Origin: an archaeon GW2011_AR10
GTDB taxonomy: Archaea > Iainarchaeota > Iainarchaeia > Iainarchaeales > GW2011-AR10
Direction of reading: 5' to 3'
Assembly: GCA_000830275.1 (NCBI GenBank)
Contig: CP010424.1
Span: 1,200,001 to 1,232,000, forward strand
Length of the DNA: 32,000 nt
Below the pieces are notes generated by a model. It did no database searches. It had not been told where the DNA came from and saw only the letters and a list, made by a program, of their open reading frames with translations. The position numbers and the translations under genes were made by a program. This document shows, piece by piece, positions 13,295 to 21,175 of this stretch. The number at the start of each line of letters is the position of its first letter. The first letter of the stretch is position 1.

Positions 13295-13759
13295 GTGTCG
13301 ATTCTGACAAGCGCGAAATCAGCAATTAAGGGCCTAGCCGAAAAAATCCTTTACGTGGACGATACCAGTGTTGCAAGAGACCAGTTAAGGGTTCTAGAGG
13401 ACTACTACTCCAAATTCTACTTTGACACAAACACCGATGACCTGCAGGAGCTGGCCGGAATTTTAAAGAAAAAGCATTTCGTTGACTCAATCTGTGTTTC
13501 CCAAAACAATGGTTCAATGATTGTCAGCACCAACGGCCAAGACCTAAACGAAGCAGTTATTGGAACGGCTTTATTCAATTACATCCAGTCAGAGATTCCA
13601 AAAAGCGAAGCAGTTATGATAAAGTCAAAGGACTGGTTCATGCTTTACCCTTACGAGCACAAAATCTACATTGTAAAAGCCCCAGCCAGCCTTTCAGTTG
13701 TTGAGTTGAGGGCCATAGCCAAGGACATGGAGTGCTTTTTCTCCAAGAGAAAAAAGTAG
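13295..13759 (+). CDS. hypothetical protein, possible roadblock/LC7-like fold
   Basis: The GTG start immediately follows the preceding stop. VDSICVSQNNGSMIVSTNGQDLNEAVIGTALFNYIQ looks like a roadblock-type alpha/beta core. This is a weak call. Confidence 0.45.
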   Translation: MSILTSAKSAIKGLAEKILYVDDTSVARDQLRVLEDYYSKFYFDTNTDDLQELAGILKKKHFVDSICVSQNNGSMIVSTNGQDLNEAVIGTALFNYIQSEIPKSEAVMIKSKDWFMLYPYEHKIYIVKAPASLSVVELRAIAKDMECFFSKRKK

Positions 13760-13783
13760 CTGTTCAAGCGTTCCTGAGATCGA

Positions 13784-13896
13784 ATAATTCCACCAAACAA
13801 CCATTTAAAAATGGCGGAATTATAACTCTCAAAAACCACCGATTGAAGCAGGCAGGATGCCTATATTGCTTCCATTAGAATCAAGTGGTTTTTGAG
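13784..13896 (+). repeat. twin-hairpin element, copy X
   Basis: Hairpin 1 is ATAATTCCAC (13784-13793) paired with GCGGAATTAT (13814-13823), with one mismatch. Hairpin 2 is CTCAAAAACCAC (13828-13839) paired with GTGGTTTTTGAG (13885-13896), perfect over 12 bp. It shares architecture and stem words with 20975-21142. Confidence 0.6.
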
Positions 13897-13974
13897 AAGC
13901 TTTTTAAAAGAATTAACACATCATTCTATAGCAAAATGCTTATGTATTTGAACAAAAAATTGCATTTTGCAACT

Positions 13975-14018
13975 AGCAAACAGCAAATGAAATGTTCAAA
14001 AAATTAATGCTGTTTGCT
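13975..14018. promoter_or_regulatory. 11-bp perfect inverted repeat spanning the minD promoter region
   Basis: AGCAAACAGCA (13975-13985) pairs with TGCTGTTTGCT (14008-14018). The loop holds AAAAAATTAAT and the repeat ends 22 nt before ATG 14041. Confidence 0.35.
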
Positions 14019-14040
14019 ATAATTGCATGGAGCGGTTTTG

Positions 14041-15735: not shown

Positions 15736-15837
15736 AGGGCTCGTGGTCTAGTGGCATGACGGATCCTTGGCGATGAATGCAAAATTAATGCTTTCACTTG
15801 AATGGATCAAATTGGGGGTTCGATTCCCCCCGAGTCC
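15736..15837 (+). tRNA. tRNA-Ala(GGC) with an intron of about 30 nt at or next to the canonical 37/38 site
   Basis: Folded by eye. The acceptor is GGGCTCG/CGAGTCC with the G3:U70 alanine identity pair. D arm GTCT-AGTGGCA-TGAC; anticodon stem GATCC/GGATC; loop TTGGCG giving anticodon GGC. The insert is about 15772-15801 with an internal helix TGAAxGC/GCxTTCA. Variable loop AAATT; T arm GGGGG-TTCGATT-CCCCC; discriminator A. CCA is not encoded. Confidence 0.85.
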
Positions 15838-15838
15838 A

Positions 15839-15892
15839 TCGGCTGAAACCTCAGCCGGCAAGGTGTGGAATACTCGTTTCACTCGTATTCCA
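15839..15892 (+). other. two hairpins in the tRNA-Ala trailer
   Basis: CGGCTGA-AACC-TCAGCCG (15839-15856) and GTGGAATAC-11 nt-GTATTCCAC (15864-15892). The second reuses the ATTCCAC/GTGGAAT word of the twin-hairpin elements. Confidence 0.5.
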
Positions 15893-19118: not shown

Positions 19119-19236
19119 AAAAGATACCTCGGCTTTTAAGTCGCGGTTATTGGCCTCGGTATCTTTTCCGTTGACGGGTTCATGACGTCCATTAAATGTT
19201 GGGATACCCCTGCCTTTAGGCATGGGAGGACGTCAT
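19119..19236 (+). other. two long perfect hairpins (structured RNA or leader of unknown function)
   Basis: AAAAGATACC (19119-19128) pairs with GGTATCTTTT (19158-19167). ATGACGTCC (19182-19190) pairs with GGACGTCAT (19228-19236), enclosing CCCTGCC-TTTA-GGCATGGG. A further 9-bp hairpin is CCTTTGCAC/GTGCAAAGG at 19339-19375. Confidence 0.4.
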
Positions 19237-19245
19237 TTGCTTGAA

Positions 19246-19265
19246 GGGCCTATGGTCTACCGGTA
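19246..19265 (+). pseudogene. orphan tRNA 5' fragment (acceptor 5' strand plus D-arm start)
   Basis: GGGCCTATGGTCTACCGGTA compared with the tRNA-Val 5' end GGGCCTGTGGTCTAGTGGTTA. GGGCCTA is the perfect complement of TAGGCCC at 21168-21174. No anticodon arm or T arm follows. Confidence 0.55.
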
Positions 19266-19441
19266 TGATTCATTCTAATTTTTTCAGACACCTCCAATTT
19301 AGAATTTTTTCTTAGGACTCTGATTTTCTCGGCTTAAACCTTTGCACGTCTGAATCTCTAATTTTTGTGCAAAGGATTTAATGCCTCCAAAATCAACAGA
19401 GACGTCCACGAAAAAATTCATCATTCATTGGAGGTGATTCG

Positions 19442-19576
19442 ATGAAAAATTTTAATTTTCAAATTCCCTCAAAGGGAGAACTCAGAAGAGCTCTAGGATT
19501 AGCTCACTCAAATCCAGAAGAACTAACTGACAGGGAGCTTTGGATTCTAGAAGAGTTTGGAGGAGATTTTCAGTGA
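19442..19576 (+). CDS. 44-aa hypothetical protein, first gene of the three-ORF cassette
   Basis: GGAGGTGA (19430-19437) lies 4 nt before the ATG. The product is MKNFNFQIPSKGELRRALGLAHSNPEELTDRELWILEEFGGDFQ. Its stop overlaps the next start (GTGA). Confidence 0.4.
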   Translation: MKNFNFQIPSKGELRRALGLAHSNPEELTDRELWILEEFGGDFQ

Positions 19577-19725
19577 GCTTTATTCTTCTATTTCTTTTTA
19601 GCTTGATTTTCTTTCCTCTGCTCTTTATTCTTGATGCATTTGGATTTAATGAAGAAGCATATGAGATAGCGAAATATCTAGTAGCTTTTTTCTTAGGAAT
19701 GCTTGTTTGGGAGTTGGTGTTATGA
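19573..19725 (+). CDS. 50-aa hydrophobic (two-TM) protein (hypothetical)
   Basis: Same frame as ORF track 19540..19725. The GTG at 19573 overlaps the upstream stop, and its own stop overlaps the next ATG (ATGA at 19722). Confidence 0.4.
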   Translation: MSFILLFLFSLIFFPLLFILDAFGFNEEAYEIAKYLVAFFLGMLVWELVL

Positions 19726-20867
19726 ATCCCGCACCGGAAATGAACCCTCAAATTCGATATAAATCTAAAAAACTAATTTCTTTTATGAAAAGCCTTTCTG
19801 GTTATACAATAGAAGAAAAAAGAGTATTGCTTGAAGATCCAAAACTATTTTTTAGAGCAATTAAAGAATCTCCAAAATACCTTTCTTGGAATTCTCTTGT
19901 CGAAGATGTTAGTTGTGCAAATACAACTTTGAAAAAGTATAGGCGAGGAGAGTTAACTATCCGAGGAGATATTTTCCTTAAACTTTTGAGTTATTTAAGT
20001 AAAAATCAAAAGCAAAGACTAATTTCCAAGATAAATTTAGTGAATTCTAATTGGGGTGCAATTAAGGGCGGTAAGCGAGGTTTTGCAGTAATAAAAGAAA
20101 AGTATGGTGAAAACTATTTGGAGATGCTAAGAGTCAAAGGTCAGCGAGCAAGTTTGAATAGCCCATTGTTCATTACCAAACCAATGGAAATTACTATCCC
20201 TTCAAGCATTACTATGGAAATTGCAGAGCTATTTGGAGCCTATCTTGGGGATGGAACTTTAACAAAATATTTTATGAGAATTGCAGGGGATAAGCGACTG
20301 GATAAGTATTATTTCATCTATCTTTCAGGATTAATCAAAAAGAATTTTGGATTGAGTTCAACCATAAAAGAGATAAGCCTTTCTACAAATCAACTTTGCT
20401 TGGAAATAAGATCAAAAAGATTTGTGGATTATTTCAGACATGTTTTTCAACTGAAAATAGGGAATAAAATTAGAAATTCATCAAAAATTCCTGAATTTAT
20501 TATAGAAGACAAGGAATTAGCAAAAGCGTGTTTGAGAGGGTTGATGGATACTGACGGATCTTTTTCAAGGAGGTCAACATATATGTGTTTAGCTTTTACG
20601 TCCCATAGCCCTATACTGCTAGGCCAAGTTCATAATCTTGGTTTAAAATTTGGGTATTTTTCCTATAAATTTAAAGATCAAGTAGGTTCTAATTCTTCTG
20701 GCAGAATAAAGAAGTATTTCTCAGAAGTTGGCAGTTCAAATTTGAGGCATATAGTCCGTTACCATGAACATCTTAAAAATAACCGTTTTTTGTATTCTGA
20801 GGAAACATTAAAATATTTTCCTGAATATCAAAATCTTATGCTGCCATATTATGGGCCTGTGGTCTAG
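19722..20867 (+). CDS. double-motif LAGLIDADG homing-endonuclease-like protein with an N-terminal helical (HTH-like) extension
   Basis: ORF track 19707..20867, trimmed to ATG 19722. The two LAGLIDADG motifs are ELFGAYLGDGTL and CLRGLMDTDGSF, about 100 aa apart. The gene is AT-rich (spot counts 16/60 and 20/60 G+C). Its last 5 codons and stop lie inside tRNA-Val. Confidence 0.8.
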   Translation: MNPAPEMNPQIRYKSKKLISFMKSLSGYTIEEKRVLLEDPKLFFRAIKESPKYLSWNSLVEDVSCANTTLKKYRRGELTIRGDIFLKLLSYLSKNQKQRLISKINLVNSNWGAIKGGKRGFAVIKEKYGENYLEMLRVKGQRASLNSPLFITKPMEITIPSSITMEIAELFGAYLGDGTLTKYFMRIAGDKRLDKYYFIYLSGLIKKNFGLSSTIKEISLSTNQLCLEIRSKRFVDYFRHVFQLKIGNKIRNSSKIPEFIIEDKELAKACLRGLMDTDGSFSRRSTYMCLAFTSHSPILLGQVHNLGLKFGYFSYKFKDQVGSNSSGRIKKYFSEVGSSNLRHIVRYHEHLKNNRFLYSEETLKYFPEYQNLMLPYYGPVV

Positions 20868-20963
20868 TGGTTAGAGAGCTTAGGAAAAATTAATCTTGGC
20901 TCTCCCGCAAATGACGTTACCTTGACATGGTAAAGATCGGCAGTTCGATTCTGCCCAGGCCCA
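20853..20963 (+). tRNA. tRNA-Val(GAC) with a non-canonical intron of about 38 nt in the D arm
   Basis: Folded by eye. Acceptor GGGCCTG/CAGGCCC; D arm GTCT-AGTGGTTA-G[insert about 20875-20912]GAC; position 26 is G. The anticodon arm TTACC-TTGACAT-GGTAA gives anticodon GAC at 20924-20926. Variable loop AGATC; T arm GGCAG-TTCGATT-CTGCC; discriminator A. The insert contains the helix GAGAGC/GCTCTC. Removing it leaves a 73-nt cloverleaf. Confidence 0.8.
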
Positions 20964-20974
20964 CTTTAAATCAG

Positions 20975-21142
20975 GTAATTCCACCGTTTTCAAACGGTAG
21001 TCAGGTAAAACTTTGACAAATCAAGTGATTGCTCCATATTTCATTTTGTCAAAGTTTTAGTGGAATTACTACTGTCAAGAACCACTTGCTTGTTTTGGAA
21101 TTTTATAAACATGCCACTGACTTTAGTCGGTGGTTCTTGACA
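20975..21142 (+). repeat. twin-hairpin element, copy Y
   Basis: Hairpin 1 is GTAATTCCAC (20975-20984) paired with GTGGAATTAC (21060-21069). It encloses CCGTTT/AAACGG and a perfect 15-bp hairpin TAAAACTTTGACAAA/TTTGTCAAAGTTTTA. Hairpin 2 is TGTCAAGAACCAC (21073-21085) paired with GTGGTTCTTGACA (21130-21142). Confidence 0.6.
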
Positions 21143-21150
21143 ACAATTTA

Positions 21151-21175
21151 GGCGGTTCGACTCCGCCTAGGCCCA
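21151..21175 (+). pseudogene. orphan tRNA 3' fragment (T arm plus acceptor 3' strand plus discriminator)
   Basis: GGCGG-TTCGACT-CCGCC-TAGGCCC-A compared with the tRNA-Val 3' end GGCAG-TTCGATT-CTGCC-CAGGCCC-A. The trailers are also similar. No matching anticodon arm lies immediately upstream. Confidence 0.6.

Follow-up and report, generated by a model that had tools for sequence, protein, structure and literature searches.

Two intergenic loci in a stretch of archaeal DNA share a twin-hairpin architecture with paired changes in their stems, which raises the question of whether they specify a structured RNA or are copies of a mobile DNA. The stretch, referred to here as the window, comprises 32,000 nucleotides (positions 1,200,001–1,232,000) of the single-contig, 1.24-Mb genome (43% GC; label G000) of the archaeon GW2011_AR10, an Iainarchaeota-like member of the DPANN archaea; coordinates are those of the window unless marked as genomic. 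Copy X (13780–13897) and copy Y (20971–21142), both on the plus strand, are very probably copies of a non-autonomous, hairpin-ended mobile DNA derived from an insertion sequence (IS) of the IS200 group (IS200/IS605 family). Y is a full non-autonomous element that extends from TCAGG to TTGACA and carries one nested foreign insert, and X is a rearranged member of the CTC-arm subfamily, which keeps the canonical succession of arms and linker but has the interiors of both hairpins inverted. Judged from sequence, hairpin 1 contains the left-end (LE) hairpin, and the last ~33 nt of hairpin 2 correspond to the right end (RE), of a ~600-bp IS200-type IS. All of the sequence-level hallmarks of the IS200/IS605 family are found in the elements, and from these we infer the enzymology.

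Structure of copies X and Y

Copy X is laid out as ATAATTCCAC (13784–13793)...GCGGAATTAT, the linker AACT, and CTCAAAAACCAC...GTGGTTTTTGAG (13885–13896). Copy Y is laid out as GTAATTCCAC (20975–20984)...GTGGAATTAC (21060–21069), the linker TAC, and TGTCAAGAACCAC (from 21073)...GTGGTTCTTGACA (21130–21142). These twin-hairpin layouts agree with those of an initial annotation of the window, made from the letters alone. The arms of hairpin 1 in the two copies are AATTCCAC/GTGGAATT and those of hairpin 2 are CAA(A/G)AACCAC/GTGGTT(T/C)TTG, such that the A-to-G difference on the 5′ side of hairpin 2 has its counterpart, as first described, in a T-to-C difference on the 3′ side. The pieces were folded as single-stranded DNA (ssDNA) and compared with 200 dinucleotide shuffles each. 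X gave z-scores of −7.0 and −7.3, and hairpins 1 and 2 of Y gave −7.5 and −6.3, respectively; all folded pieces scored between −5.1 and −7.5, and none of the 200 shuffles was as stable.

Hairpin 1 of Y (20975–21069, plus strand) consists of the outer stem GTAATTCCAC/GTGGAATTAC around the LE hairpin and a nested repeat, module C. The LE hairpin CCACCGTTTTCAAACGGTAG (20981–21000, plus strand) forms the core of hairpin 1 and matches the LE upstream of the transposase gene tnpA elsewhere. Module C (21006–21059, plus strand) is a separate palindromic repeat of 52–54 nt, whose 15-bp palindrome TAAAACTTTGACAAA/TTTGTCAAAGTTTTA is the extra hairpin that had been reported in loop 1. Hairpin 2 (21073–21142, plus strand) has the outer stem TGTCAAGAACCAC/GTGGTTCTTGACA, the 3′ arm of which is the right-end terminus, and it includes the RE block CATGCCACTGACTTTAGTCGGTGGTTCTTGACA (21110–21142, plus strand).

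Family copies in G000, including those named below (c613, c652, c674, c784, c897, c899, c1104 and c1163), were searched for genome-wide in three ways: with regular expressions, with nhmmer, and with R1, a covariance model based on an alignment (A1) of 12 copies. Y is matched by R1 at genomic positions 1220965–1221143 with an E-value of 2e-18, and its boundaries were assigned by analogy with an exact filled/empty pair elsewhere in the genome. The module hidden Markov models (HMMs) both hit X on its minus strand; on the plus strand, its linker GGAATTATAACTCTCAAAAACCAC agrees with c674 and c652. The covariance model matches X with E-values of 5.7e-6 on the minus strand and 2.2e-4 on the plus strand. 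The units are 100–180 nt long, and on the sense strand neither X nor Y contains an open reading frame (ORF) of at least 50 aa, although a mechanical ORF of 57 aa on the minus strand (13666–13839) overlaps part of X.

Strong stems, with double changes in 6 of the 22 consensus stem pairs, would also be displayed by non-coding or cis-regulatory RNAs of a new structured family, with the hairpins selected at the RNA level. The initial annotation listed such a family among its candidates and took the conservation of pairing as a signature of functional RNA or DNA structure. We consider an RNA family improbable, and the first point against it is that the elements have no Rfam match at or near threshold. 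Only tRNA-Val (20853–20963) and tRNA-Ala (15737–15838) reach Rfam gathering scores in the window, and permissive scans of the X and Y loci gave chance-level matches only. A weak match to HEARO at 21000–21141 on the minus strand (21.4 bits, gathering score 83) was treated as chance; HEARO is the IscB-associated omega-RNA and belongs to the same IS superfamily.

The parent insertion sequence

The same ends bracket a transposase gene in other genomes, which argues against an RNA family and identifies the parent. In a relative (G006), an R1 match (E=5e-6) is located directly upstream of a Y1_Tnp gene (locus L051). The order at this locus is TTTAAA followed by GCTTGTGAATTCCACTGCTTTTAAGCAGTGG, then an ORF of 158 aa, and then TTCATGCCACCGACTTCAGTCGGTGGTAATTGACAT. 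The ORF product carries the HUH (HCHMV) and tyrosine (SYYLDG) motifs, and scores 97 bits against Pfam Y1_Tnp, 90 bits against NCBIfam transpos_IS200 (cut-off 55) and 23.8 bits against REP_Tyr_transpos (cut-off 80), the model for RAYT-type tyrosine transposases. The RE block of c1104, which matches that of Y, resembles the RE downstream of the G006 tnpA, with 94% identity over 34 nt by BLAST. A second G006 copy and one copy in another genome (G115) have the same LE upstream of tnpA.

A scan of genome contigs with the single G006 TnpA protein found no relative, while an alignment-based metagenome scan found seven contigs (L068–L074), each with TATAAA followed by TAACTATTTCCACCGTTTTTAAACGGTGG upstream of a tnpA match. 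On five of the seven, a complete tnpA is followed by CATGCCACCGACTTCAGTCGGTGGTAGTTGACA (with one variant ending in TTTACA), and the flanking DNA is mostly different. Hairpin 1 of Y and the LE upstream of tnpA on L073 share an identical stretch of 20 nt, TTCCACCGTTTTCAAACGGT. Complete IS copies, with tnpA between both ends, are thus found in G006 and on five metagenome contigs, and partial copies elsewhere. In the small elements, the outer stems repeat the LE start and the RE end in inverted form, and the central part of the unit is close to the reverse complement of the RE-LE junction.

These loci also bear on whether the family could consist of repetitive extragenic palindromic (REP) or REPIN-like elements served by a domesticated RAYT-type tyrosine transposase. 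Like such elements, the family is intergenic, occurs in many copies and forms hairpin doublets, and RAYTs are related to the IS200 TnpA (Y1/HUH). In contrast, G000 has no Y1 or RAYT gene by Pfam or tblastn, the enzyme of the relatives scores as IS200-type and far below the RAYT cut-off, and the transposase gene is inside the element between LE and RE rather than a single-copy gene flanked by REPs. We therefore give this explanation little weight.

Insertion site and target word

The boundaries of the element can be read from copies c613, c784 and c897, which are located in the loop of another repeat, a hairpin bounded by CTATAG. Uninterrupted hairpins of this kind (n=7, with one-base variants in two) read CTATAGCAGGCGACATTAATTTTTGAA^CATTTATTGTCGCCTGATAG, also written ...TTAATTTTTGAA^CATTTATTGTCGCCTGATAG, where the caret marks the insertion point. 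The filled hairpins (n=3) read ...TTTTTGAA/TCAGGCAATTCCAC...GGTGGTTCTTAACA/CATTTATTG..., with slashes at the junctions. The comparison of filled and empty hairpins therefore defines the element as exactly TCAGG...ACA, and shows that insertion 3′ of TTTGAA was precise and without target duplication, with a boundary ambiguity of 1 nt.

The adjoining 6 nt on the left side of the element read TTTAAA, or differ from it by one base, in nearly all G000 copies (consensus TT(T/G/C/A)AAA), and likewise in the relatives; the word is also present at empty sites. Because TTTAAA is conserved on the left flank, it is the target and not part of the element. TTTAAA or TATAAA also borders the autonomous IS copies. 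At Y, the target motif (20965–20970, plus strand) lies directly 5′ of the left end and one base past tRNA-Val. TTTAAA is palindromic and coincides with an archaeal TATA-box-like word. No consistent rule of the IS608 style was found for pairing between guide and cleavage site (AATT and CATG, 4 nt 5′ of the hairpin feet, versus TAAA and GACA).

The right flanks differ between copies. This applies to the ACA that follows hairpin 2 of Y (21143–21145) and that, together with the two hairpins, had suggested a guide RNA of the H/ACA kind. The ACA is flanking sequence after the conserved ...TTGACA terminus and is not conserved at other copies. Moreover, the stems are perfect helices of 10–13 bp without a pseudouridylation pocket, and no H/ACA family of Rfam matches Y; the sole match near X is outside the element and reaches 21.5 bits against a gathering score of 50. 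An H/ACA-like guide is thus the least probable of the explanations considered here, with next to no weight left to it. A classical miniature inverted-repeat transposable element (MITE) with terminal inverted repeats (TIRs) was also rejected as a candidate, since the termini are not complementary and insertion occurs without a target-site duplication (TSD).

In 18 of the 25 loci, a gene start lies 3–110 nt from the element on its LE side, as judged from a crude gene map (binomial p=0.043). The bias could be counted in favor of cis-regulatory RNAs, but it is explained by targeting of the TATA-like TTTAAA; we infer that TATA words were targeted and that insertions keeping the spacing from TATA word to gene start then survived.

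A repeat family across the genome

The initial annotation knew the element in two copies. The genome-wide search finds ~25 loci, of which ~24 contain hairpin 1 and ~17 hairpin 2, with ~12 full units. R1 gives 27 matches in G000, and the nhmmer strand-hits number 27 for hairpin 1, 20 for hairpin 2 and 36 for module C. All of the G000 copies are intergenic on a crude ORF map.

The canonical unit of ~125 nt is 5′-TCAGG-yAATTCCAC...GTGGAATTr-TAC-TGTCAAAAACCAC...CATGCCACCGACTTCAGTCGGTGGTTTTTGACA-3′ or, in full, TCAGG-yAATTCCAC-NGTTTTNAAACN-GTGG-TTNN-GTGGAATTr-TAC-TGTCAAAAACCAC-TTGCTTC..GAAGC..AAACATG-CCACCGACTTCAGTCGGTGG-TTTTTGACA. The end hairpins are subterminal (LE, CCAC-N12-GTGG; RE, CCACCGACTTCAGTCGGTGG), and neither terminus, TCAGG... 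or ...TTGACA, is an inverted copy of the other, so that the element has no TIRs. The loops, described as unrelated in X and Y, are related after all: the interior of hairpin 2 (..TTGCTTC..GAAGC..AAACATGCCACCGACTTCAGTCGGTGG) is kept across the family, and the interiors of both X hairpins are the reverse complement of the canonical ones. In c674, hairpin 2 alone is flipped. The arms fall into subfamilies (GTA/TAC, TGA/TCA and GCA/TGC; CTC../..GAG versus TGTC../..GACA).

Module C (AAAACTTTGRCAAA..TTTGYCAAAGTTTT) occurs at ~19 loci genome-wide, seven of them with identical HMM scores. It is also inserted at varied positions of other family copies and in other repeat families, and empty sites exist for comparison. 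Its loop is reverse-complemented in c784 (genomic 784103–784154) relative to c613 (genomic 613514–613565) and c897 (genomic 897901–897952). This flip, in composite repeats that are otherwise colinear, is an in-situ inversion between inverted arms of 14 bp. At c1163 and c899, the hairpin 1 loop TTTTAAAA contains insertions of other repeats. Such nesting, interruption and in-situ inversion are behaviors of DNA, not those of a conserved RNA; copies of an RNA gene would not be expected to be split by, and nested in, other repeats, or to have RNA loops turned into their complements.

In the window, a copy of another repeat family at 19120–19210 (minus strand) is empty of module C, reading GGGTATCCCAACATTTAATGGACGTCATGAACCCGTCAACGG^AAAAGATACC...; the marked position holds a module C insert in eight other genomic copies, identical except in one.

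The trailer of tRNA-Ala contains a 9-bp hairpin, GTGGAATAC/GTATTCCAC (15864–15892), with a T-run ~40 nt downstream. The hairpin is present as initially annotated and shares the family word, yet both HMM and covariance model miss it as a member, and the proposed link to the family is not retained.

Distribution in relatives

A BLAST search of Y against 40 relatives gave no match outside G000, and a covariance model was therefore needed. With R1, the distribution proves patchy: of 60 genomes from the same order, 10 have full-length copies, in several of its families, with E-values down to 1e-15. The covariance search that had been recommended thus did reveal further copies, at home and in relatives, and the retention of the motifs across several families of the order is a point in favor of an RNA family. 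Y1_Tnp is found in 18 of the 60 relatives, that is, in 6 of the 10 with the element versus 12 of the 50 without it. When the regions flanking 20 further Y1_Tnp loci of the relatives were compared with G000 by BLAST, none could be connected to its other hairpin families.

At the locus of X, the gene order up2-up-minD is kept in 11 relatives with spacers of 15–156 nt and without the element, so that the presence of X is lineage-specific. The corresponding up-minD spacer of G000 is 281 nt and consists of X, a retained TATA-like CTTTTTAAAAG, and a doublet of another hairpin family. In the interval between X and minD (13898–14040), the TATA-like word is followed by this doublet of ~100 nt (TAGCAAA...TTTGCTA), which apparently lies within the 5′ leader of minD.

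One locus is shared between two different families of the order. The element is found upstream of an orthologous FKBP-type gene in G000 (genomic 848633–848758) and in another genome, G040 (L035, 1501–1629), in opposite orientations: sense in G040 and antisense in G000. The opposite orientation argues against a role as a sense-strand cis-acting RNA, and the locus is consistent with a promoter region that was targeted repeatedly or long ago.

The tRNA surroundings of Y

Y lies between tRNA-Val(GAC) (20853–20963, plus strand; RF00005, 55.4 bits), a neighbor with a D-loop insert of ~40 nt, and an orphan tRNA T-arm and acceptor 3′ end (21151–21175, plus strand), which Y did not produce. This position, between a tRNA gene and a 25-nt tRNA-like 3′ end, had been taken as a sign of a duplicated target or an att-like tRNA copy. 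In such a reading, Y would be a tRNA-targeting integrative element or its remnant that carried or duplicated a tRNA 3′ end as an att site.

The position was described correctly, whereas the duplication does not hold. Of 25 positions, 4 differ between the orphan 3′ end and that of tRNA-Val, among them a compensated pair in the T-stem; the orphan 3′ end is therefore from a different tRNA. Excision of Y in silico leaves ...CCCAC-TTTAAA^ACAATTT-AGGCGG..., with the orphan 3′ end 21 nt past tRNA-Val. Since the orphan 3′ end remains after Y is removed, the fragment predates Y, and the family inserts without duplication. Furthermore, Y alone among the ~25 family loci touches a tRNA. The acceptor TAGGCCC of the orphan 3′ end is perfectly complementary to that of an orphan 5′ piece, GGGCCTA, at 19246 (GGGCCTATGGTCTACCGGTATGAT), 1.9 kb upstream, and the region between the two pieces (19246–21175) contains a LAGLIDADG ORF (19707–20867), the intact tRNA-Val and Y. 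From their sequences, the orphan pieces look like a tRNA gene that was disrupted or replaced by a homing-endonuclease cassette, in an event separate from Y. Targeting of tRNAs is thus very improbable, and Y landed on TTTAAA after tRNA-Val. The earlier proposal of a MITE-like element that targets tRNA 3′ ends survives in its first half, with an IS200/IS605 parent; its second half gives way to the TTTAAA flank.

An ARAGORN call of a tRNA-Pro(AGG) with a 246-nt intron at this locus is an artifact that joins the 5′ part of tRNA-Val to the orphan 3′ end, since no anticodon stem is possible. Over the whole genome, ARAGORN predicts many tRNAs with long or non-canonical introns, with inserts of 112–170 nt in Pro, Tyr, Gly and Ser tRNAs, and three calls with introns of 756–1621 nt may be further split or invaded tRNA genes. 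A second valine tRNA, tRNA-Val(TAC) (genomic 1051309–1051414), likewise has a D-loop insert.

Proposed mechanism

In the characterized systems IS608 and ISDra2, the hairpins at LE and RE are recognized on a single strand by TnpA, and the element is cut out as an ssDNA circle in which RE is joined to LE; the circle is then inserted without duplication 3′ of a specific short word left on the LE flank (TTAC for IS608) (PMC5027513). By analogy, TnpA acting in trans would bind both end hairpins of the present element on one strand, excise an ssDNA circle with an RE-LE junction, and paste it 3′ of TTTAAA in exposed ssDNA ("peel-and-paste"). Because TTTAAA is a TATA-box-like word that is also found in AT-rich hairpin loops, copies would gather upstream of promoters, after tRNA-Val and inside repeats. 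G000 would have lost tnpA or never had one, and its orphan copies would decay and be interrupted. Recombination or template switching between inverted arms may have flipped the interiors.

Although the compensatory changes in the arms do exist, they cannot be taken here as diagnostic of RNA function. They fit the subfamilies, and would reflect subfamily descent and arm-to-arm homogenization in DNA palindromes instead of selection on an RNA.

Several observations weigh against an IS200-derived mobile element. First, no tnpA remnant is found in G000: the best tblastn match with the G006 TnpA has an E-value of 0.058, and the Pfam search of the genome gave neither TnpB (PF07282) nor Y1_Tnp (PF01797). 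The copies are therefore orphans, which bears on current activity and not on origin. Second, the autonomous IS lacks the long outer stems, and descent from it accounts for neither their origin nor their role. Third, the insertion polymorphism that had been suggested as a check does not appear at Y: among 10 contigs with an identical HicB (nine metagenome contigs and one NCBI genome assembly), the locus is identical except for one base in one contig. Fourth, element orientation on the two sides of the GC-skew extremes (6 plus and 10 minus versus 7 plus and 2 minus) shows no significant replichore bias (Fisher p=0.10), in a comparison that is confounded with gene orientation.

A further possibility, to which we assign a low probability, is that the copies, landing directly upstream of TATA-like TTTAAA words, replace the side of promoters that holds the transcription factor B recognition element (BRE), with their long palindromic ends co-opted as promoter-proximal modulators or insulators, or that in this episymbiont without a transposase they are still mobilized by a TnpA from a host cell, a virus or a co-resident DPANN archaeon. 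If true, a TnpA supplied from outside would amount to trans-cellular mobilization of non-autonomous elements.

Comparison with known systems

The closest parallels are palindrome-associated transposable elements (PATEs), gene-less derivatives of IS200/IS605-family elements that were first named in Haloquadratum (PMC3119063) and are also found in Geobacillus (PMC10055086). Like PATEs, the present family lacks ORFs, retains LE and RE hairpins from an IS200/IS605-family parent, is multi-copy and intergenic, shows no TSD, and is presumably mobilized in trans by TnpA. Unlike PATEs, it has a parent of the IS200 type with tnpA only and no tnpB or omega-RNA, its ends are extended into long perfect palindromes by an inverted copy of the terminus, and its host is a DPANN archaeon without any tnpA.

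With IS608 and ISDra2 (PMC5027513), the family shares subterminal hairpins in place of TIRs, precise insertion without duplication, and insertion 3′ of a short word on the LE flank (TTAC in IS608, TTTAAA or TATAAA here). It differs from them in that the unit is ~125 nt and non-coding, and in that the target word is a 6-nt palindrome matching the archaeal TATA-box consensus.

Bacterial REPs, bacterial interspersed mosaic elements (BIMEs) and REPINs are likewise hairpin-forming intergenic repeats, often inverted doublets, with Y1/HUH enzymes behind them. In contrast to these, the enzyme of the present family is IS200-type and carried in the element, with no RAYT, and its two hairpins are different (LE-derived and RE-derived) instead of being inverted copies of one REP. 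Classical MITEs, such as Correia elements and the archaeal SM-type, are also small, non-coding and multi-copy, and can nest and affect promoters; the present family is distinguished from them by the lack of matching TIRs (TCAGG... versus ...TGACA), the lack of a TSD and a different transposition chemistry.

Implications

The feature is a real, well-defined and ordinary kind of selfish DNA, of the PATE/MITE-like kind already known, and the evidence does not support an RNA gene. What appeared to be a structured RNA with covariation is recast as a testable identity, that of IS200-derived mini-elements. The case also carries a caution, as paired compensatory changes in the long inverted repeats of mobile DNA mimic RNA covariation. 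For the annotation of Iainarchaeota-like genomes, such elements account for enlarged spacers between genes, for breaks in assemblies and for hairpins next to promoters. Among the many hairpin-repeat families of this genome, one now has a transposase family, a target word (TTTAAA) and defined ends (TCAGG...TTGACA), and it provides a template for asking whether the other, more abundant hairpin families of the genome arose similarly.

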